DNA of 64,000 nucleotides from Promethearchaeota archaeon (GCA_048940925.1 JBHLOC010000001.1:96001-160000), one strand, 5' to 3'. Shown: positions 21,875 to 32,362, counted from the stretch's first letter. A program made the numbers and translations. The notes: generated by a model not told the origin, from the sequence alone.

Positions 21875-22714
21875 TTAAATAAAATTTTTGACAAAATCAA
21901 TACTTTGAATTAAGTGTTTAGATGAGGATAATTCGATAATCAATGCATCATTATAGCTGTATTGATGTATTAAACTAAATATTTCATTGAAATCGACTTT
22001 TCCGGTTCCTAAAGGGGGATGAGTATCTGTTTCTTTACTAAAATTATCTACTATATGAATATTTCGTATTTTTTTATACATTTTTTCCCATAATAGTTTA
22101 ACATCTCCATCTGTTGTGTAAAAATGACTAGAATCATAAGTGAAATATAATTCCGAGCGATTTATTGTATTAAAGAAACTTTCTATTTCATTTTCATCTA
22201 ATAACATATAATTCCTACGGGGCATATTCTCAATACAGAGATCTATTTCCATTGTGTTAGTATAATCTAATAAAATATTAACTGCATTTACTAAATTGGT
22301 TTTATTAAATTCCCTTAAAGGTTTAACTAAGAAGTCTCCAAATCCTGGATGAATTGTTAAAATTTTTGCACCTAATTTATTACATATTTTAGCGGTTTCG
22401 ACATAAGATTTAATGGATGCTTCTGAAATGAGTTTATTATTAGAACATAAGTTTACACTAATAAAAGGCCCATGAACTTGTATTTTTAATGAATAAGACC
22501 TTATCAAATCAATAAACTGCTGCAAATTATTACTTTTTAATATTAATGGAGGTTCGATTACTATTTCAACTATATTAATATTATTATTTTCTGCAAATTT
22601 AAGACTCTCATCTGTAGCTTTGATTAATAAGTCATTTAAGCTTGTAAAATTACCTGAAATTCCGAGATCTATAAGATGTCCAAGAGAACTAATTCCTATT
22701 TCCAAACTTTTCAC
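21875..22714 (-). CDS. Sugar-phosphate isomerase/epimerase (xylose isomerase-like TIM barrel)
   Basis: HPG, IENM, YDSSH, HIVD, HPPLGTG, IIE. Confidence 0.85.
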   Translation of the reverse strand: MKSLEIGISSLGHLIDLGISGNFTSLNDLLIKATDESLKFAENNNINIVEIVIEPPLILKSNNLQQFIDLIRSYSLKIQVHGPFISVNLCSNNKLISEASIKSYVETAKICNKLGAKILTIHPGFGDFLVKPLREFNKTNLVNAVNILLDYTNTMEIDLCIENMPRRNYMLLDENEIESFFNTINRSELYFTYDSSHFYTTDGDVKLLWEKMYKKIRNIHIVDNFSKETDTHPPLGTGKVDFNEIFSLIHQYSYNDALIIELSSSKHLIQSIDFVKNFI

Positions 22715-22743: not shown

Positions 22744-23427
22744 TTAAATATTTTTCTTTCGCATACTTCGAGGATAATTAGCAAATAAGCTGTTATGCAG
22801 TTTTTCAAATCTTGTAAGATGTATTTCTGGAATTTGTTTTGGTTCTCCTATCTGTAAAGCACCCCAGTAAATTTTTGCTAATTTTTCCACAAGTTCTGCG
22901 AATTTTACTGCATGATCTATAGATTTTCCGCATACTATTACTCCATGGTTTTCTAATAAGGCAGCATTTTTAATTCCTAAAGCATTAAGGGCTACCTCAC
23001 CTATTTCTTCTGTGTGAGCCTTTCCAAACCTAGATACATCAACAGAGCCTCCTATAAAAATATACATTTCCTCCATTATTAGCGGAATACTTTTTTGGAC
23101 AATTGATAGCATTGTTGCATAAGTTGAATGAGTATGAATTATTGCTTGTACTTTTGGTCTTGATTTGTAAATAGCAATATGCATTTTTACTTCTGTTGAA
23201 GGTAATTTACCACTACTTAAAGGAGTACCATCAAAACCCATATGGACGATTTCATCTTCCTTTAATGTAGTATATTGGTTAAATGACGGAGTGATGAAAA
23301 GCTCCTCTTTTTTACCATTTCTTATACTGACATTACCTTCTCCAGCTTCTACTAAACCTTTTGCAAAAATAGATTTTGCTGCTTCAACTACTTCTAACCG
23401 AAGTTGTTCTTCTTTATTCGTTGACAT
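22744..23427 (-). CDS. Class II aldolase (L-fuculose-1-phosphate aldolase family)
   Basis: GNVS, ITPS, PSTE, HTHS, NHG. Confidence 0.9.
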   Translation of the reverse strand: MSTNKEEQLRLEVVEAAKSIFAKGLVEAGEGNVSIRNGKKEELFITPSFNQYTTLKEDEIVHMGFDGTPLSSGKLPSTEVKMHIAIYKSRPKVQAIIHTHSTYATMLSIVQKSIPLIMEEMYIFIGGSVDVSRFGKAHTEEIGEVALNALGIKNAALLENHGVIVCGKSIDHAVKFAELVEKLAKIYWGALQIGEPKQIPEIHLTRFEKLHNSLFANYPRSMRKKNI

Positions 23428-23599: not shown

Positions 23600-24697
23600 A
23601 TGACAAGATTGATAATTCATTGTGATTTGGATTGTTTTTTTGCTGCAGTCGAAGTAAGAGATAATCCAAAATATAGAGGAAAGCCTGTTATCATTGGAGC
23701 CGACCCAAAAGAAGGTAATGGGCGAGGTGTTGTATCAACTTGTTCATATGAGGCAAGAGTATTTGGTATTCATTCAGGAATGCCCATTTCTCATGCATAT
23801 CAAAGATGCTCTCAAGGGATTTATTTAAGGCCTAATGGTGAAAAATATAGAAAAGTGTCTAAACAGGTTATGCAAATATTAAATAAATATTCAGATACTT
23901 TCCAACAGGCGGGAATTGATGAAGCATATTTGGAATTTACAGAAATCTGCTCAAATTTTAAAGAAGTCAAAAATATTGCTGAAAATATACAAAATAATAT
24001 CCATAAAAACTTAGGGATTACAATTTCAATAGGATGTGCACCAACAAAATCTTTAGCAAAAATTGCATCTGATTGTAATAAACCAAAAGGAATAACCATT
24101 TTTACACCAAATAATTTTAAAGATAAATTAAAAGATTTAGAGATTACAAAAATCCCGGGTATAGGCAAAAAATCTAAAAAATATCTTTATAAGAAGAATA
24201 TTAGGAAGATAGGGGATATACTCAAATTTTCTCTTCAAAAATTTAGAGATCTATTTGGTAAAAATGGAGAATGGATTTGGAAAGTTGTGAATGGTTTTGA
24301 TAATAGGAAGGTACGGGAATTTGATGATGGAAGGAAGTCCATTAGTGCAGAACGAACATTTTTTGCAGACACAGATGATTTTCAAGAGGTATTATCAAAA
24401 TTGGAAGATATTAATAATAAGATACATAAATCGGTTGTAAAAAATAATATAACTTACAAAACTATAACATTGAAAATTAGATTCAAAGGCTATTTGACAT
24501 ATACTCGTTCAAAAACACTTTCCTATCATACCCAGGACAAAAATATTGTAATGGATGAAATTTTAAAGTTATATAAAGAATTCTCAAATAATAAAAAAAA
24601 GATAAGGTTAGTTGGGATTAAATTGTCAAATCTGGAATTGAATATAAAATCTCGTCAAACAAATCTTCTAAGTTTTGCTTCTGTTTCTATTGCCTAA
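23600..24697 (+). CDS. dinB: Y-family DNA polymerase IV
   Basis: HCDLDCFFAAVE, SYEAR, GIDEAY, AKIASD..KP.G, IRLVG. Confidence 0.95.
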   Translation: MTRLIIHCDLDCFFAAVEVRDNPKYRGKPVIIGADPKEGNGRGVVSTCSYEARVFGIHSGMPISHAYQRCSQGIYLRPNGEKYRKVSKQVMQILNKYSDTFQQAGIDEAYLEFTEICSNFKEVKNIAENIQNNIHKNLGITISIGCAPTKSLAKIASDCNKPKGITIFTPNNFKDKLKDLEITKIPGIGKKSKKYLYKKNIRKIGDILKFSLQKFRDLFGKNGEWIWKVVNGFDNRKVREFDDGRKSISAERTFFADTDDFQEVLSKLEDINNKIHKSVVKNNITYKTITLKIRFKGYLTYTRSKTLSYHTQDKNIVMDEILKLYKEFSNNKKKIRLVGIKLSNLELNIKSRQTNLLSFASVSIA

Positions 24698-26771
24698 TTA
24701 TGTCTTTTATTTCAAATAAATAATTTTCCAATGAAGAAGTACTTATATTGATACCTGGTGTTTGCTTTGACTTTCTTAATAAATCTGATTCAAAATTATA
24801 TTCATTTAAAAGCCATAACAATTTATATAATTCGATTTTTTTTCTAAAATCATTATTAACTTTATGATATTTTGAATAAGCATCATAAAAAGCATTAAAA
24901 AATGAGGGAATATTCAAGTGTTTTAAAATCCAATATTCTATTTTAACAAAATCTTGAGCTCTGTGTCCTATACACCATTTATCAAAACCTACAAACCCGT
25001 TAGTTTGAATGGCACCTAATTCTTCTTTGACTATAATATTTTGACTTTGAAAATCATTATATAGTAAAACATACTCGTGATCCTCTTCAATTAATGTCCT
25101 ATTATTATTGAAGAATGCCCAAATTTGATCACTAACATCTATTCCATTTTTTTTTGCTTCTTGAATTTTATTTTCTAATTCATTAGTAAAAAAATCAGAA
25201 GAGATGGCTTTTCTCTTGCCCCCAATATCCCTTATATTACTATAATAAGAGTCAAATTTTATGTTATGTAAATGTCCTAAATGTTCTCCTAAATTGGCAA
25301 ATAAATTTAGAAATCTGCTGGTATTTAAGTTTTTTCCCTCATTTAAATACTGATTTACAAGTTGAAATAGAGGTTTTCCTCTAATATAATCTTGCACTGA
25401 GAAAATATAAGGGATTATTTGTTTCGTTTCATCGTAGAAAATTAAGTTACTTACTGGAATAATTGTAGGTTTTTCTTTCTTGAATATGTAAGATCCTGTT
25501 TTTTTACTAATTATTTGCTTTACCTTTTCTCCTAGATCATGCTCTTCAGGAGTAAGAGTCTTATCTAAAAAAGGAAATAAGAGTTTCTCTTTGATTATAT
25601 TTTCTATTTGAGGATATCCATTTGTTCTAAATCTGAAAACTAATTTACTATTTTCAAAAACAACTTTATAAAGTGTATTTATATCAGCTTTATAAGGTCC
25701 TTTTATTTTTTTTACTTTTCCTTGCTTGACTAGAATATCAATATTAGAAAATGTTTGAATAATATCATGGAATTGATATATATCTTTTTTACCTAATGAG
25801 TAAAGGTGATATATATGTTTTTGATTAACTAAATAATTCACAGTAGCTTCGATTCTTTCTTTAACTATAGAATCAAAATCTTCTTGTGCTCTATTTGTAA
25901 TAGTACTAATATATTCCTTAGAATTTGATATCAAGTCTTTATATAGATATAAAAATGCATATTTTAGACTTAAACATTCAGAGTCTTCAATTTGCTTGAA
26001 ATAAATTTTATTTCTAATATCATTAATTTGCTCTTGTAGTTGAAGAAGTTCTAAGATATTATCCTCTAGGGCATATTTTAATAATTTAGAAAACATATTA
26101 ACCAAATTACTTATTTTAGAAACAATTCCACTATATTTTCTTTGTTCTATTGGAATTAATTGGAAAAATACTTGAGAATTTTCCTCCATTCCACACCAAA
26201 CTGAAAAATTTTCATTTAATATTTGAATAAAAGATTTACAATTCTTGATATTATTAAAAGAATCGTTCAATCCTCTTAGATTGGAAAATTTTAATAATTT
26301 GGTAATTAAATTTGGTGTAATATCATTTCCAATGTATATACTTGGATTATTATGGATATATATCGGACTTTTTGGATTAATTGAACTTAAAATATTTTCA
26401 AAATAGGATTTAATTTCTTGAGTATCTAATTTTTTAGTGGTTGGAGGTGTAATCATAAAATTAAGAACAGGAAATTTTTTTGCTAATATCTCTATCTGAT
26501 TTATAATATCTTCTACATCATTACCATATATTCCAGTAATAATTGGAGTTTTTTTTTTAGTAATTTCAATTGATAACTCAATAAGTTTAATTATTTCTTC
26601 AATTTTATCAGAAAATAGCTGCCTTTCTCCTAGATTTCCAAAAAGAAGAAGTGAATTAATATCATTTGTAAGGATGTGACGGATTAATAATGAATTTAAT
26701 TCTTTATCAATTTCATAATCTTTATTATAGAAGGATAGTGTGTTACAGATAACTCCATTAACAGATGTCAT
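24687..26771 (-). CDS. DapA/NanA-like TIM barrel fused to an APH/choline-kinase-like domain, both degenerate
   Basis: N-terminal half: GNLGE, IHNNP, GLNDS. C-terminal half: QDYIRGKPL, LGHLH, LLYNDFQSQNI, GFVGFD. Confidence 0.75.
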   Translation of the reverse strand: MTSVNGVICNTLSFYNKDYEIDKELNSLLIRHILTNDINSLLLFGNLGERQLFSDKIEEIIKLIELSIEITKKKTPIITGIYGNDVEDIINQIEILAKKFPVLNFMITPPTTKKLDTQEIKSYFENILSSINPKSPIYIHNNPSIYIGNDITPNLITKLLKFSNLRGLNDSFNNIKNCKSFIQILNENFSVWCGMEENSQVFFQLIPIEQRKYSGIVSKISNLVNMFSKLLKYALEDNILELLQLQEQINDIRNKIYFKQIEDSECLSLKYAFLYLYKDLISNSKEYISTITNRAQEDFDSIVKERIEATVNYLVNQKHIYHLYSLGKKDIYQFHDIIQTFSNIDILVKQGKVKKIKGPYKADINTLYKVVFENSKLVFRFRTNGYPQIENIIKEKLLFPFLDKTLTPEEHDLGEKVKQIISKKTGSYIFKKEKPTIIPVSNLIFYDETKQIIPYIFSVQDYIRGKPLFQLVNQYLNEGKNLNTSRFLNLFANLGEHLGHLHNIKFDSYYSNIRDIGGKRKAISSDFFTNELENKIQEAKKNGIDVSDQIWAFFNNNRTLIEEDHEYVLLYNDFQSQNIIVKEELGAIQTNGFVGFDKWCIGHRAQDFVKIEYWILKHLNIPSFFNAFYDAYSKYHKVNNDFRKKIELYKLLWLLNEYNFESDLLRKSKQTPGINISTSSLENYLFEIKDIIRQ

Positions 26772-26978: not shown

Positions 26979-27689
26979 GTGAAATTACCTTTAATTTCTA
27001 GTGGTACTTCGCCTTTTATAGGAGCAGGTCAATTTGGATTCAATGCATTTGATTGGCGAAGAAAATTTTTAAATAATCCAGATGCAATAATAGAGATTTT
27101 GGAAACAGGTTACCAATATGGAGCAAGAGGTGTAGAAGCAATTCCATTAGGAAAAATTATGGAAGCTTGTTGTATAATGAGTGAAATTCATAATGATTAT
27201 ATTATTACAGGATCTACATACCCTGAAAAAAACTCTGGTATTGAAGCTTTAATTAAAGCTGAGGCAAAAATAATATTCGTGCATGGGATGATAGCTGACA
27301 AGAAAGGAAGAGAATTGTCAAATCTACTGGATGATATTGTTTCTCAAGGAATAATTCCTGGTATTGCTACCCATGAACCAATTTCTACAATAAATTATGT
27401 TATTGATAAAAAGTTGAATGTAAAGGTGTTCCTGATTCCTTTTAATGCGTCTGGTGCTTTTATGGGGGATTTAAGGGGTCTAGAACAAATTGTTGATAAT
27501 ACAAGTAATTATTATTTTATTGGTATGAAAACTTTAGCTGCTGGGAATCTGGAGCCCGCTGAAGCTTTTGATTACATTGCAGAACATAATATTTGTGCTG
27601 TTACAATAGGAATGGTTACAAAGGAGGAGGCTAAGATTTCTACGCAAATTGCATTACAAGCATTAACTTCAAAAAATAATCGTTTTTAA
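26979..27689 (+). CDS. Conserved hypothetical protein, aldo/keto-reductase-like TIM barrel
   Basis: GTSPFIGAGQFG, PGIATH.P, GMKTLAAG, VTIGM. Confidence 0.6.
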   Translation: MKLPLISSGTSPFIGAGQFGFNAFDWRRKFLNNPDAIIEILETGYQYGARGVEAIPLGKIMEACCIMSEIHNDYIITGSTYPEKNSGIEALIKAEAKIIFVHGMIADKKGRELSNLLDDIVSQGIIPGIATHEPISTINYVIDKKLNVKVFLIPFNASGAFMGDLRGLEQIVDNTSNYYFIGMKTLAAGNLEPAEAFDYIAEHNICAVTIGMVTKEEAKISTQIALQALTSKNNRF

Positions 27690-27698
27690 TTGTTATGA

Positions 27699-29387
27699 TT
27701 AAATTTTTTTAGATTCCTTGAAAATATCAAAAATCTCCATTTCATAATCAATCGTATCTTCAGGTAGGAGATTTGGATCTTTTACTAATTTTGCTAGATA
27801 ATAAGTTTTAGCTCCTCTTTCAAGATATTGTAAAACTGTATATGCTCCTTCAAGGTGGCTTCCACAGCACAGGTTGCCATGGTTAGCAAGCAATACGGCG
27901 TTCCGCTCCTCTAAAGCTGTGATAACACTTTCCGCTAATTCTTCACTTCCGGCTTCTCCATAAGCAGCACACAAAACTTCTCCTCCTATATAAGGTACTA
28001 ATTCTTCCATTATTGGAGGTACTGAAAGATTTAGCGCACTAAGTACTGTTGAAAACATGCTATGAGCATGAATTATGGCATTTACATCTTCTCTTTCTTT
28101 GTATAATCTTAGATGCATTTTTTTTTCTACAGAAGGATTCTTTTCACCCTCTAATACTTTACCCTCCATATTTATAATAAGGATATCATCAGGTTTCATC
28201 TCTTCATATTTTACATTGCTTGGGGTGATTAATACTATCTCTTTATTGTTATATTTCATTCTAAAGCTAACATTTCCAGCAGATCCAATTACATGTCCTT
28301 CATTTAGTAATTTTTTACAAAGTGTAACAATTTCTGCTCTCTTCTGATTAATACTCATATCAGATATGATATCTATTTTCCTTTTAGCTTTAATTACTTC
28401 GGGATTTAAAATATTTCTTGGTATTTCATCATTTAACCACAATTTTATATCTTCTAATAACATTCTAGATTGACGTTCTATGATTTCTATGGTATTTCCA
28501 CCTATATGAGGGGTCACAATAACATTATCCAATTCTAAAAATTCATTATCTTCGTCAATAGGTTCCATTGGGAAAACATCAAGAGCTGCTCCCGCAATTT
28601 TTTTTTGTTTTAAAGCTTGATATAATGCATCATAATCAATAAGGCTTCCTTTAGCTGTGTTTACTATATACGCTTTTTTTTTCATCAAATCTAAACGTTT
28701 TTTGTTAATAAGATTATCATTATCATCAGTAGCTTTTGCGTGTATTGTTATAAAATCAGAATCTTTCATTAAGTAATCTATATCTACTTTCTCACCATAA
28801 TCTTCAGTACTTTCATCTGGAATATAAGGATCATAAATAAGAAAATTAACTCCAAAAGGTTTTAATCTGTCAGCAACTCTGCGTCCAATCTGCCCGAAAC
28901 CAATTATTCCTATAGTTTTTCCTTTTAATTCTACTCCTTCAAATTGATTAAAGTATTTAACCCAATCTTCAAAATCTATAACTTGAAAATTTTTCGAATG
29001 GAGCACTCTATCAATTATCGAGAAATTTCTAGCTAAAGAAAGTATGAATCCTACCGCAGCTTCAGCAACAGCTTCAACATTTCTTAATGGCGTATTTAAT
29101 ACTGGTATATTATTTTTAGTAGCCGTTTTTAAATCAATATTGAATGGATCTCCTCTACAGGATACGACTAGCTTTAGTTTTGTTTGATTAAAAATTTCTG
29201 GTTTTTTAATATCATCTATTTCGGTAATAAAAATATCATAGTTTTTTAATTTTTCAATAAGTTCTTTTATATCAAAATATATAATTCCCGTTTCTCTCCA
29301 GGGTTCGTAGGTAATTTCCATTAATTTTTTTAATTCATTCAAACATTTTTCTGTAATATTTGCTGTTATTAGAGATTTCATTAGCAT
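27699..29387 (-). CDS. D-2-hydroxyacid dehydrogenase (YoaD/SerA2 type) fused to a class II aldolase
   Basis: CRGDP.NID, NTPLRN, GFGQIG, NTAKG, DVF.MEP, TPHIGG; then GNVS, TPS, PSVE, HAHS, NHG. Confidence 0.9.
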   Translation of the reverse strand: MLMKSLITANITEKCLNELKKLMEITYEPWRETGIIYFDIKELIEKLKNYDIFITEIDDIKKPEIFNQTKLKLVVSCRGDPFNIDLKTATKNNIPVLNTPLRNVEAVAEAAVGFILSLARNFSIIDRVLHSKNFQVIDFEDWVKYFNQFEGVELKGKTIGIIGFGQIGRRVADRLKPFGVNFLIYDPYIPDESTEDYGEKVDIDYLMKDSDFITIHAKATDDNDNLINKKRLDLMKKKAYIVNTAKGSLIDYDALYQALKQKKIAGAALDVFPMEPIDEDNEFLELDNVIVTPHIGGNTIEIIERQSRMLLEDIKLWLNDEIPRNILNPEVIKAKRKIDIISDMSINQKRAEIVTLCKKLLNEGHVIGSAGNVSFRMKYNNKEIVLITPSNVKYEEMKPDDILIINMEGKVLEGEKNPSVEKKMHLRLYKEREDVNAIIHAHSMFSTVLSALNLSVPPIMEELVPYIGGEVLCAAYGEAGSEELAESVITALEERNAVLLANHGNLCCGSHLEGAYTVLQYLERGAKTYYLAKLVKDPNLLPEDTIDYEMEIFDIFKESKKI

Positions 29388-29487
29388 ATTTCCTTTTTAA
29401 TTTATTAGTTCTCTATTATTATTTACAATATTAATGATGTAGATTTAAAATTAATACTTAAATGTTATAATTTAATGAAGAATATGC

Positions 29488-29847
29488 TTAGAACATTAAA
29501 CTTCGAAGCTTCATTAAGGTTCGTATATTACCCTCAATTATTTTGACTTTACCATCAGAATAAGCTTTAACTGCACCTAACTTTTTATTAAATAAATTAA
29601 TCATTACTTCTTCACCCGTAAATTCAATTTTAACTTTTGCAGTATCATCTCCTGTCTTATCTTTTATTTCAATCCCTTGATCTTTATTGATAAGGATAAG
29701 GATTTTTCTGTTGGTATCCATAAATGATACTTGGATGGGTTCTTCATAATTAGCTAATTTTCTTCTTATTTTTTCGTTGTTGTTATAACGTTTTTTAATT
29801 TCTTCTAAGCAATTATTTATTGTTAAAATTTGTGACATAATTTTCAC
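29488..29847 (-). CDS. SCP2 sterol/lipid-binding domain protein
   Basis: C-terminal LGAVKAYSDGKVKI.EGNI..LMKL SCP2 signature. Confidence 0.75.
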   Translation of the reverse strand: MKIMSQILTINNCLEEIKKRYNNNEKIRRKLANYEEPIQVSFMDTNRKILILINKDQGIEIKDKTGDDTAKVKIEFTGEEVMINLFNKKLGAVKAYSDGKVKIIEGNIRTLMKLRSLMF

Positions 29848-30064
29848 ATTATCTTTATCATTCGTGAACCAATTTTAAATTATTATTTTTAAATATCATA
29901 TATGAAGAAAATCTAATAAAGCATCCCTCTATTGATTTTAAAAGCAGGTGTTTTGTACTAATAATATTTTGAATATTGAAAATAAGTTTTAATTAAGTTA
30001 AACAAATATAATATTAAAGATTTTAAGCAAAATTTTTTAATTAAAAATATAGTATTGAATACTT

Positions 30065-30844
30065 TTGAAAATAAATGAATTATTTTTTGAATTATCAAAT
30101 GAAGAGAGATTTAAGATATTTAAATCTCTATTTAATGAAAGTAAACGTCATAATCAAATAGAAAAAGAGTTGGGTATTCGAGGATCTGAAGTTTCCCGTC
30201 ATTTAAAGAGACTTATAAAGGAAGATTTAGTTGAAAAAGATATCTATAATAAATATGATATTACTAATATAGGTAGAATTTTCCTGCAGATATTAGATCT
30301 CCTTAAAATATTTTTAAAGTTTAAAAATTATTTTAATAGTCATAATGTTTATGAACTCCCATTCTATGTAACTCTGCAGCTAGGGGATTTAAAAACTCTT
30401 AAAATTAACAAAGGTACTATGCAAAATATAGAATTATGGGCACAATTGATTAAAGATTCAGAAAAGTTTATATTAGCGATTTCAGATCAATTTCAAGATT
30501 CAATTCTACCTATAGTAGAAAAGAAGATAAATAATATTTCAATTAATATCCGGGCAATAATAGATGAAACTGTTTTAAAATCAAAAGGCTATGAGAAATT
30601 AGAAGATCGCCATGCTTTTTATCGAAAGTTAAATATAGCAGAGAATATTAAAGTTTTGACTCACATTGATTTCTCTCTTTTAGTTTCTGATAAAGGAGCC
30701 ATTATATTTTTGAAAAGAGAAGGAAAAATTGACTACAGTGAATGTTTATATGATGATATTGAAACTTTTATTAATTGGGCAATCAACCTATTTGAATGGT
30801 ATTGGAAAAAAGGTAAAGATATAAAACCTTTTATAAAGAAATGA
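30065..30844 (+). CDS. Archaeal wHTH transcriptional regulator (ArsR-like HTH + DUF1724-like domain)
   Basis: LSNEERFKI...EVSRHLKRL...LVEK...YDITNIG; C-terminal WA..LFEWYW. Confidence 0.8.
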   Translation: MKINELFFELSNEERFKIFKSLFNESKRHNQIEKELGIRGSEVSRHLKRLIKEDLVEKDIYNKYDITNIGRIFLQILDLLKIFLKFKNYFNSHNVYELPFYVTLQLGDLKTLKINKGTMQNIELWAQLIKDSEKFILAISDQFQDSILPIVEKKINNISINIRAIIDETVLKSKGYEKLEDRHAFYRKLNIAENIKVLTHIDFSLLVSDKGAIIFLKREGKIDYSECLYDDIETFINWAINLFEWYWKKGKDIKPFIKK

Positions 30845-30853
30845 AATAACTAG

Positions 30854-32362
30854 TTATAAATAATCTAATTTCTTTTTCAAATTTTTCCACTCCGTATAAA
30901 TCTTGTTGTAATCCTCCGCAATAGAAGAATTAGCCAAATGTTTTTCAAAATTTATTAACTCATTTACAATAGTTTTATAATTAGAATATAATTTCAAACC
31001 TACTAATACATTCATAGCACATCCTATAAATGCTGATTCTTTAATGACGGGGACATATAATTCTTTATTCAAAATATTTGTTAAAATAGTACAAATCTCC
31101 TTTGATTTAGTTAAACCCCCCGATGTAAATATTTTCACAGTTGAATCGGTAAAGTTATATAAAGCTTGAACGTTTTCTAATACTCCAAAACAAATATTTT
31201 CAATACAGCTCCTAGCAAAATTTTGTATTTTTGGTAAATCTTCACCAATCATACTGGGGGGCTGAAAAACAAAAATTCCCCTCTTAATTGAAGTCATATC
31301 TTTAAAAGTCATAAATTCAGGTCCTAAGAAAGCATATGTTGAACCCGCTCCAGGTTTACTATTATGTAAGTAAGTATCCATTAAGTCATTACCATTTACT
31401 AAGTTGCTATGTAGAAATGCATCTTTAAACCAATCATAAACTCTACCTGCACTTCCCGTATTTGCCTCAATTAGCCATTTATCATCTATGATGTGGCATT
31501 CTGTCCAAAAGTTTAACTCAGTGTCAAATATAGGTTTATTTACAACTAAATGAACTGGTGCTGTTGTGCCTAAAGTTATCCCTATATTTCCATTTTCAAT
31601 TACACCCATACCTATTAAATTTGCTTGAGTATCCCCACAACCTTTAACGACGGGAATTTCAGTTTGTTTTAAACCATATTCCTTAATTAGTTCTGACTTT
31701 AAATTTCCTATAACAGTTCCAGGGTTCACAATTTCAGGAAATAAATCATTATTAAAATTAAATGCATTGATAATTTCTGAACTCCATATTTTTTTATTTA
31801 CATCAAATAGCTGAGATTCACCGACAGATGTATAATCAGAATAACATTTTCCTGTAAGTTTATATCCAATCCAATCATCAAGCATCAAAATTTTACTAAT
31901 TTGTTTAAATTTATCTTCCCTCTCTTCTTGAAACCATAATAAACGAGCTAATATAAACATAACAGAAGGATTATGCCCTGTAATTTTAAAAAGTTCCTCT
32001 TCAGAGAAGTGATCTTCTATAAGATAGGCAGAATCAATACCTCTAATATCTGTATTAGGACCTCCATAGATTTCATGACCTGCTTTATCTAAGAAAATGG
32101 CAGCCATCCTTTGTCCACATGAAGATATTCCAAGTAATCTTTCTAATTTTCCCCTTTTTAATACTTCTTTAATACCGCTATTAATTTTTTTCCATATACT
32201 AGTCATATCAAATGATTTTGCAAATCCATCGATATCTTCATTAATTATTTCATAAGGATGAAATGAAGAGTTTTCTAATTCTAAATTTTCTGTAACCAAT
32301 CCTACTTTTATATTGTTGGAAGATATATCAATTGTTAGGATTTTATTATCAGAATTCTCCAT
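30854..32362 (-). CDS. FGGY carbohydrate kinase, YoaC/LsrK-like
   Basis: QR....LDK.G..IYGGPNTDIRG, LLWF, SQLFD, GDTQ, GTT, SGG..KS; atypical first motif DISSN. Confidence 0.85.
   Translation of the reverse strand: MENSDNKILTIDISSNNIKVGLVTENLELENSSFHPYEIINEDIDGFAKSFDMTSIWKKINSGIKEVLKRGKLERLLGISSCGQRMAAIFLDKAGHEIYGGPNTDIRGIDSAYLIEDHFSEEELFKITGHNPSVMFILARLLWFQEEREDKFKQISKILMLDDWIGYKLTGKCYSDYTSVGESQLFDVNKKIWSSEIINAFNFNNDLFPEIVNPGTVIGNLKSELIKEYGLKQTEIPVVKGCGDTQANLIGMGVIENGNIGITLGTTAPVHLVVNKPIFDTELNFWTECHIIDDKWLIEANTGSAGRVYDWFKDAFLHSNLVNGNDLMDTYLHNSKPGAGSTYAFLGPEFMTFKDMTSIKRGIFVFQPPSMIGEDLPKIQNFARSCIENICFGVLENVQALYNFTDSTVKIFTSGGLTKSKEICTILTNILNKELYVPVIKESAFIGCAMNVLVGLKLYSNYKTIVNELINFEKHLANSSIAEDYNKIYTEWKNLKKKLDYL

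Follow-up and report, generated by a model that had tools for sequence, protein, structure and literature searches.

Introduction

5-Deoxyribose is disposed of through the dihydroxyacetone phosphate (DHAP) shunt, either by DrdK-DrdI-DrdA or by MtnK/MtnP, MtnA and Ald2 (PMC6079011). In 2-hydroxyacid dehydrogenases (2HADHs), the carboxylate of the substrate is bound by Arg230 and the backbone amides of Val72-Gly73, and in SerA of types I and III an Arg of the beta4-alpha4 loop touches the substrate (PMC6303947). Here, we describe a locus from a Promethearchaeota archaeon (GCA_048940925.1, JBHLOC010000001.1:96001-160000; this stretch of 64,000 nucleotides is referred to as the window) in which a 2HADH is fused to a class II aldolase and encoded beside an SCP2 lipid carrier and an FGGY kinase. 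The window is low-GC (~28%) Asgard DNA. An initial annotation, made from the sequence alone, had likened the fused dehydrogenase to Bacillus subtilis YoaD and Mycobacterium tuberculosis SerA2. For YoaDC, the literature offers only a guess from 2009 (PMC2885750), and nothing was found in it on the function of Rv0727c-0729.

No published study of the module was found, yet it occurs in about half of the sampled Asgard genomes and in several bacterial phyla. We propose that it is a catabolic device that clips the tail of a lipid-linked polyol to give DHAP and a lipid aldehyde, a reading that in our judgement has an even chance of being correct.

Results

A conserved module of kinase, dehydrogenase, lipid carrier and aldolase

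The fusion gene (DH::ALD; 27699-29387, minus strand) encodes 562 amino acids (aa), or 560 if translation is called from the second Met. Its dehydrogenase domain (DH; aa 1-335, 28383..29387) was recognized by Pfam and NCBIfam as a divergent 2HADH, scoring 194 bits for 2-Hacid_dh_C and 49 bits for 2-Hacid_dh over aa 6-328. The aldolase domain (ALD; aa 345-562, 27699..28355) is of the metal-dependent, DHAP-type class II (Pfam Aldolase_II, 164 bits, aa 352-530). An SCP2 protein of 119 aa (29488-29847, minus strand; Pfam SCP2) is encoded 100 nt upstream on the same strand, and the FGGY kinase (30854-32362, minus strand; Pfam FGGY_N and FGGY_C) follows beyond a regulator gene that is described below. 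Pfam and NCBIfam thus found all four genes where the initial annotation had placed them. When the window proteins were scored, no enzyme of the locus reached an NCBIfam equivalog cut-off.

The module had been taken for an orphan, a description that has to be given up. An ortholog-level match to DH (E <= 2e-73) was found in about 99 of the 201 Asgard genomes sampled, at least 35 of the matches being fused, as well as in several bacterial phyla. The best 120 database relatives of the fusion (66-84% identity, ~560 aa) come from Asgard metagenome-assembled genomes. The distribution is patchy, since three genomes of the same genus lack the DH ortholog. In all 20 Asgard loci inspected, the neighbours of which are only partly annotated, DH, FGGY kinase and ALD are clustered, and SCP2 accompanies them in 16. 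Where the genes are unfused, the operon reads SCP2-DH-FGGY-ALD and is followed in some cases by a gene for an aldehyde:ferredoxin oxidoreductase (AOR). AOR is present in 8 of the 20 loci, adjoining the operon in most of them, and 16 AOR paralogs are found elsewhere in the window's genome. Other Asgard neighbours are aldo/keto reductases (4/20 loci), MFS carriers, a group-3 hydrogenase-like set and an NfnB/GltD-like protein; two acyl-CoA synthetase genes and an ABC-2 exporter stand beside the operon in two loci (L042 and L041; locus handles begin with L, genome handles with G). In the former, a second SCP2 gene and an extra aldolase copy come right after AOR (L042:12659-13807), and the two acyl-CoA synthetase genes precede the operon. 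In two genomes of the same family, the fused gene has one in-frame TAA (G083:C2:106529-108247 and G174:C1:64350-66068), which could reflect a broken gene or a sequencing error.

In bacteria, the initial annotation had expected these enzymes to be encoded by neighbouring genes only. Instead, matches were found to 76 proteins of 1,011-1,478 aa, nearly all of which hold FGGY, DH, SCP2 and ALD domains, e.g., in Mycobacterium kansasii (in the order FGGY-DH-SCP2-ALD), M. persicum, Myxococcota and Pseudomonadota. The homologs in the two mycobacteria lend the likeness to SerA2 some indirect support. In several Actinomycetota, only the kinase and DH are fused (FGGY-DH, ~900 aa). Such Rosetta-stone fusions show that kinase, DH, SCP2 and aldolase act together. 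With the triad in 20/20 Asgard loci, in bacterial operons and in four-domain fusions, the genes form one functional module, as had been suggested, and its conservation goes beyond chance co-occurrence. The Actinomycetota fusions at L136:8405-11077 and L218-L224 have no aldolase detected within ~8 kb, and their genomes have no squalene-hopene cyclase (Shc).

A tree of 120 DH sequences, made with FastTree as a quick method without bootstrap, places all fused forms in one clade (support 97) that is nested among unfused Asgard forms, which suggests that the fusion arose in a single event. The DHs of the triad fall into two clades (95 and 98), the joint split of which from ordinary 2HADHs has a support of only 67%. 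The Asgard and bacterial forms are sister clades at ~40% identity, so that any transfer of function between them is a matter of inference.

Hopanoid genes beside the bacterial module

A first scan of genome contigs, with generic 2HADH patterns, returned mostly unrelated dehydrogenases, which were later used as outgroups. It found the full trio of DH, FGGY kinase and ALD only in L052, and DH and FGGY kinase only in L053 and L055. The L052 operon (L052:5255-10177, Dehalococcoidia) reads cofD-cofC-DH-FGGY-ALD, the trio being translationally coupled to cofD-cofC; cofE, Fno and a PNPOx-like gene follow downstream. In two other Chloroflexota, the trio stands behind hpnA-like, shc, ispG, hpnD, hpnC and hpnE genes, or has dxs on one side and an hpnA-like gene on the other.

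With patterns specific to the subfamily, 80 loci were found in metagenomes, many of them on short contigs, so that the following tallies are lower bounds: DH 80, FGGY 65, ALD 33, Shc 25, HpnC 21, HpnE 18 and HpnA-like 10, with a small PF25653/PF19906-like protein in 26. A shc, hpnC, hpnD, hpnE or hpnA-like gene is found in 46 of the 80, mostly directly upstream of DH. Recurrent neighbours in the bacterial clusters include an HpnH equivalog (423 bits), an HpnG-like phosphorylase, a farnesyl diphosphate (FPP) synthase, a nucleoside hydrolase and DUF116. The DUF116 protein (~150 aa) is encoded between shc and DH in 12 loci (L150, L151, L162, L164, L166, L167, L169-L171, L174, L181 and L182). Among 201 Chloroflexota sampled, the trio occurs in 3 and HpnH in 34, the latter count including three unpublished genomes (G243, G350 and G378); all three trio genomes have both HpnH and Shc. 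The overlap of trio and HpnH has a hypergeometric p of ~0.005 for genomes that are not independent. Loci with the hopanoid link are scattered over the base of the bacterial clade in the DH tree.

A protein of ~123 aa is encoded after the bacterial aldolase (in L137-L216, e.g., L139:12891-13265; L052:10062-10562; L132:11094-11462). Besides a match to PF25653 (HMG-CoA_red_N), it shows likeness to the C-glycoside deglycosidase beta subunit (PF19906). We considered it as a bacterial SCP2 and rejected this on account of its PF25653/PF19906-like beta-sandwich; it is possibly an accessory subunit that stands at the position of the Asgard SCP2.

Dehydrogenase and aldolase domains

The DH domain belongs to the 2HADH superfamily by Pfam scores above gathering and by its conserved catalytic H294 and E275. 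Across Asgard, bacterial and four-domain forms, E56, D58, R78, R102-N103, R120, E153, D270 and H294 are invariant. The elements that hold the carboxylate are different, neither the Arg230 nor the Gly73 site being canonical in the window. The canonical Gly73 is replaced by Asp in the window and by Asp, Asn or Thr in the subfamily, in a loop that reads R-G-D-P. At the Arg230 site, the initial annotation had noted Lys in place of the substrate-binding Arg (NTAKG). The motif is real in the window, and Lys is found in 119/119 of the closest fusions that matched it, but it is a lineage-specific feature rather than a family trait: most other Asgard orthologs and all 76 long fusions have Arg, and the hopanoid-linked bacterial clade has D, T, E, S or G. 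Given the altered Gly73 site and the variable Arg230 site, these residues make it unlikely that the subfamily binds a 2-hydroxy-carboxylate. R78, which lies in the beta4-alpha4 loop, is kept, and Asp186 suggests NAD as the cofactor. The phosphoglycerate dehydrogenase equivalog of SerA (TIGR01327) scores 235 bits against a cut-off of 454. By analogy with SerA, the DH may oxidize a CHOH that adjoins a CH2-O-phosphate, its substrate then being a polyol phosphate.

The initial annotation described the dehydrogenase partner as an intact class II aldolase, which is confirmed by the Pfam domains of both parts and by the metal-binding and catalytic residues. Asn29, Ser71, Glu73 and H92, H94 and H155, the three metal-binding His, are invariant in 65 aldolase sequences. 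The closest solved structure is that of DrdA, a 5-deoxyribulose-1-P aldolase (PDB 6BTD), at ~50% identity. Judged by these residues, the domain looks active and appears to fit the stereochemistry, DrdA being an enzyme that cleaves a 5-substituted 5-deoxy-D-ribulose-1-P of 3R,4R configuration. The Tyr113 site holds Glu in the window and Glu or Asp in all 65 members. We take an acidic residue at this site to be AraD-like, i.e., of the epimerase type, and Glu as the metal-site acid to be of FucA type, with Asp presumably being its counterpart in AraD. The domain reaches 188 bits with its best FucA model (cut-off 264) and 114 bits with the OtnC model (NF043034; cut-off 250), the latter being below the FucA-type scores.

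Lipid carrier and kinase

The SCP2 protein scores 33 bits in Pfam against a cut-off of 21.3. Its AlphaFold2 (AF2) model has a mean confidence (pLDDT) of 86, and the best Foldseek matches to it (43, with E up to 1e-3) are SCP2 domains, namely those of alkylsulfatases, sterol carrier proteins and UbiJ. The model confirms the SCP2 fold of the window protein, from which lipid binding is predicted. In L037-L040, SCP2 has an N-terminal extension of ~160 aa with two hydrophobic helices, by which it looks membrane-anchored.

The kinase is of the FGGY family (FGGY_N 136 bits, FGGY_C 47 bits), with GDTQ, GTTAP and GGLTKS kept. Among NCBIfam models it is most like LsrK and XylB, yet far under both cut-offs (209 vs 528 bits and 191 vs 380 bits, respectively).

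Regulator and neighbouring genes

Between SCP2 and the kinase lies a gene for a regulator with an ArsR-type helix-turn-helix (HTH) and a FilR1 middle domain (30065-30844, plus strand; Pfam and NCBIfam), divergent from SCP2 and convergent with the kinase. That the kinase flanks a divergent regulator had been noted correctly, but the regulator is no conserved part of the module: among the 20 Asgard loci, homologs are found only in the close relatives L031 and L032, and in L033 and L034 SCP2 comes straight after the kinase with no regulator between them. The regulator is a lineage-specific insertion.

Directly downstream of the fusion and convergent with it is an open reading frame (ORF) of 236 aa (26979-27689, plus strand), which has 64-65% identity to counterparts in L031 and L032 and no sequence match in Pfam, NCBIfam or the PDB. 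The module is adjoined by a gene for a DHDPS-like::APH-kinase-like fusion (24687-26771, minus strand; 694 aa), found in the same place in L031, L032, L034 and L051. It may be functionally tied to the module, APH being the fold of MtnK and DrdK. Further away are a stand-alone class II aldolase (22744-23427, minus strand; 227 aa), 34-40% identical to the fused aldolase domain, and beside it a xylose-isomerase-like TIM-barrel protein (21875-22714, minus strand), the best PDB match of which is MJ1311, followed by IolI and ketose epimerases. The pair is kept beside a PolIV gene in L031-L034 and L040, and L051 has the aldolase only; it may represent a separate sugar-phosphate module.

Discussion

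From the domain families, catalytic residues, conservation, synteny and fusions, which are observed, we infer what the substrate is, in which order kinase and dehydrogenase act, and what SCP2 does. The substrate would be a hydrophobic compound that ends in -CHOH-CHOH-CHOH-CH2OH, i.e., a polyol of at least four carbons with a D-ribitol-like configuration. SCP2 would hold its greasy part while the FGGY kinase phosphorylates the terminal primary hydroxyl and the NAD-dependent DH oxidizes the adjoining secondary hydroxyl, giving a 1-phospho-2-ketose end. The fused aldolase would then split C3-C4 into DHAP and an aldehyde three carbons shorter. AOR, the gene for which lies in the operon in other Asgards and outside it in the window's genome, could turn this aldehyde into the acid with reduction of ferredoxin, thereby pulling the cleavage. 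Aldol cleavage is thermodynamically unfavourable (PMC6079011), which would explain the coupling to an enzyme that removes the aldehyde. A route of redox, phosphorylation and aldol cleavage to DHAP and an aldehyde had been anticipated in the initial annotation, and the AOR gene in 8/20 Asgard loci supports it. Support also comes for the idea that SCP2 points to a hydrophobic polyol, with SCP2 present in 16/20 loci, apparently membrane-anchored in four, and fused into the bacterial four-domain enzymes. The acyl-CoA synthetase genes and the ABC-2 exporter at L042 and L041 are a further hint of a lipid. Alkylglycerols, which had been listed as substrates, misfit the chemistry, because alkyl-DHAP has no C4 hydroxyl for retro-aldol cleavage.

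Guided by the hopanoid genes beside the bacterial trio, we take bacteriohopanetetrol (BHT) as the leading candidate for the Asgard substrate, though it is less likely than not to be the right one. As 5-hopanyl-5-deoxy-D-ribitol, it would yield DHAP and a C32 hopanal, which would be converted to C32 hopanoic acid. The oxidized BHT 35-phosphate would be a 5-substituted 5-deoxy-D-ribulose-1-P of 3R,4R configuration, as handled by DrdA and FucA. Periodate/borohydride (Rohmer) degradation of BHT gives bishomohopan-32-ol, which has the same C32 skeleton, and the enzyme that converts ribosylhopane to BHT is not known (PMC12583986). No paper was found on enzymes that break down hopanoid side chains. 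One intriguing, if doubtful, possibility is that Asgards and some non-hopanoid bacteria feed on bacterial hopanoids, such that SCP2 extracts BHT, C33-C35 are cut off as DHAP and AOR makes C32 hopanoic acid, whereas in the producers the trio remodels or turns over their own C35 hopanoids.

Several observations weigh against lipid tail-clipping in general or against hopanoids as its target. In the window's clade, the P-loop of the kinase reads DISS instead of DxGT, and the acidic Tyr113 site leaves an epimerase activity of the aldolase possible. A small aldehyde such as acetaldehyde suits AOR equally well, and nothing was identified by which a bulky lipid could be taken up. In function, the DHs of Asgards and bacteria may have diverged. 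A derived bacterial subclade of 24 loci is without hopanoid neighbours and has housekeeping neighbours instead, Shc is missing in the nine Actinomycetota carriers checked, and the window's genome has neither Shc nor HpnH, its best radical-SAM candidate scoring 63 bits against a cut-off of 225. An endogenous Asgard HpnH was rejected on the same score. The hopanoid link is therefore confined to one bacterial clade, and in Asgards and Actinomycetota the substrate would be an imported hopanoid or another lipid polyol; for Asgards, the use of hopanoids would mean scavenging a foreign lipid. Finally, the L052 operon is part of an F420 (cofD-cofC) cluster, which hopanoids do not explain, with shc and hpnH elsewhere in the genome. 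A role of the module in the supply of F420 or 2-phospho-L-lactate was nevertheless set aside, because it concerns a single locus in a genome that has Shc and HpnH. Ribityl chains of flavins or F420 were rejected on stereochemical reasoning only, as cleavage from their free end would need an L-erythro aldolase.

The substrate might instead be soluble, although we consider this unlikely. The module would then salvage or degrade a small 5-deoxy-pentose or polyol (5-deoxyribose or 5-deoxyribitol from radical-SAM waste, methylthioribose derivatives, pentitols or 6-deoxy-hexitols) to DHAP and acetaldehyde, glycolaldehyde or lactaldehyde, followed by AOR, as a variant of the DHAP shunt or of fucose/rhamnose catabolism with kinase and dehydrogenase in place of kinase and isomerase. 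The ~50% identity of the ALD domain to DrdA fits such a pathway, as do the small aldehydes taken by AOR enzymes and the radical-SAM-rich bacterial contexts (with HpnH, the L052 F420 cluster and, in 6 loci, a further radical-SAM gene), and the aldo/keto reductases beside 4/20 Asgard loci could turn an aldose into a polyol. It would leave unexplained why SCP2 is conserved, membrane-anchored and fused between DH and ALD, and why the trio stands tightly behind hpnE, hpnC or shc and not beside genes for SAM recycling. In the neighbourhoods, as far as they are annotated, no sugar transporter or glycosidase recurs, and ordinary sugar phosphates could be handled by the stand-alone class II aldolase and the isomerase-like gene 4 kb away.

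Embedding of the module in biosynthetic hopanoid clusters would also be expected of a tailoring function, in which stereocentres in the tail of a phosphorylated polyol are inverted by DH and the aldolase-family domain, either through oxidation followed by re-reduction at C34 or, in the manner of AraD, through retro-aldol cleavage and re-addition. Bacteria would obtain BHT stereoisomers or other modified side chains in this way, and Asgards a modified endogenous compound. The Asp or Glu that all members have at the Tyr113 site, which is AraD-like, and an NCBIfam L-ribulose-5-P 4-epimerase subfamily scoring near the FucA models speak for such an epimerization. We find it improbable nonetheless: the metal-site acid is Glu (FucA-type) and not Asp (AraD), the Asgard host makes no hopanoids, and AOR directly after ALD in Asgard operons and 3 bacterial loci argues for a released aldehyde. 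AOR would have no role in a tetronate-like route, in which DH would oxidize a phosphorylated hydroxy-acid and an OtnC-like enzyme would decarboxylate the product to DHAP. DH does share its superfamily with SerA and PdxB, which act on phospho-hydroxy-acids, and the OtnC model does recognize the aldolase at 114 bits; with this score far under the cut-off of 250 and under the FucA-type scores, the carboxylate-binding elements of DH lost, and no OtnI-type isomerase or DUF1537 kinase in the operons, a sugar-acid route is very improbable.

If correct, tail-clipping of lipid-linked polyols would be a novel means of gaining central-metabolism carbon (DHAP), NADH and reduced ferredoxin from membrane lipids, namely from their polar tails, and one branch of the 2-hydroxyacid dehydrogenases would acquire a new class of substrates that are not carboxylates. 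An old geochemical question would become directly testable as well, namely who shortens the side chains of bacteriohopanepolyols, and how. Recent sediments are dominated by C32 hopanoic acids and hopanols, for which abiotic or unknown diagenesis is the usual explanation; if Asgards do feed on hopanoids, these compounds would have an enzymatic origin. The question bears on the diet of sediment-dwelling relatives of eukaryotes.

Comparison with known systems

The module resembles the DHAP shunt in that its class II aldolase is predicted to split a 5-substituted 5-deoxy-D-ribulose-1-P end into DHAP and an aldehyde, and adenosylhopane and ribosylhopane are hopanyl analogues of 5'-deoxyadenosine and 5-deoxyribose. 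In contrast to the shunt, it has neither an APH-type kinase acting on the aldose C1 nor an MtnA-type isomerase and uses an FGGY kinase and a 2HADH-family dehydrogenase instead; it adds SCP2 and AOR, and its predicted substrate is a lipid-linked polyol, not an aldose. Among the annotated neighbours in the 20 Asgard loci, the recurrent partners are FGGY kinase and DH rather than those of the Drd pathway, and the only nearby APH-type kinase domain is that of the DHDPS-APH fusion beside five f1 loci. With the catabolism of L-fucose and L-rhamnose (FucK-FucA and RhaB-RhaD), the module shares the combination of an FGGY kinase and a class II DHAP aldolase, followed by disposal of the aldehyde. It differs in the lack of a FucI/RhaA isomerase, in the added dehydrogenase and SCP2, in Glu at the Tyr113 site, and in its scores for FucA (188 vs 264 bits) and fuculokinase (98 vs 471 bits).

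The DH domain has the fold, NAD site, catalytic His/Glu and beta4-alpha4 loop Arg of SerA type IIIH (PDB 1wwk). It departs from SerA and other 2HADHs in the Asp, Asn or Thr at the Gly73 site, in the variable Arg230 site and in VEGD, which replaces the RS phosphate motif. The closest counterparts of the window genes are the bacterial FGGY-DH-SCP2-ALD proteins, which are annotated as 'NAD(P)-dependent oxidoreductase' and consist of the same four parts, with the DH hallmarks E56, D58, R78, R102-N103 and H294. In these bacteria the parts form one polypeptide with Arg230 kept, whereas in the window they are encoded by three genes and the site holds Lys.

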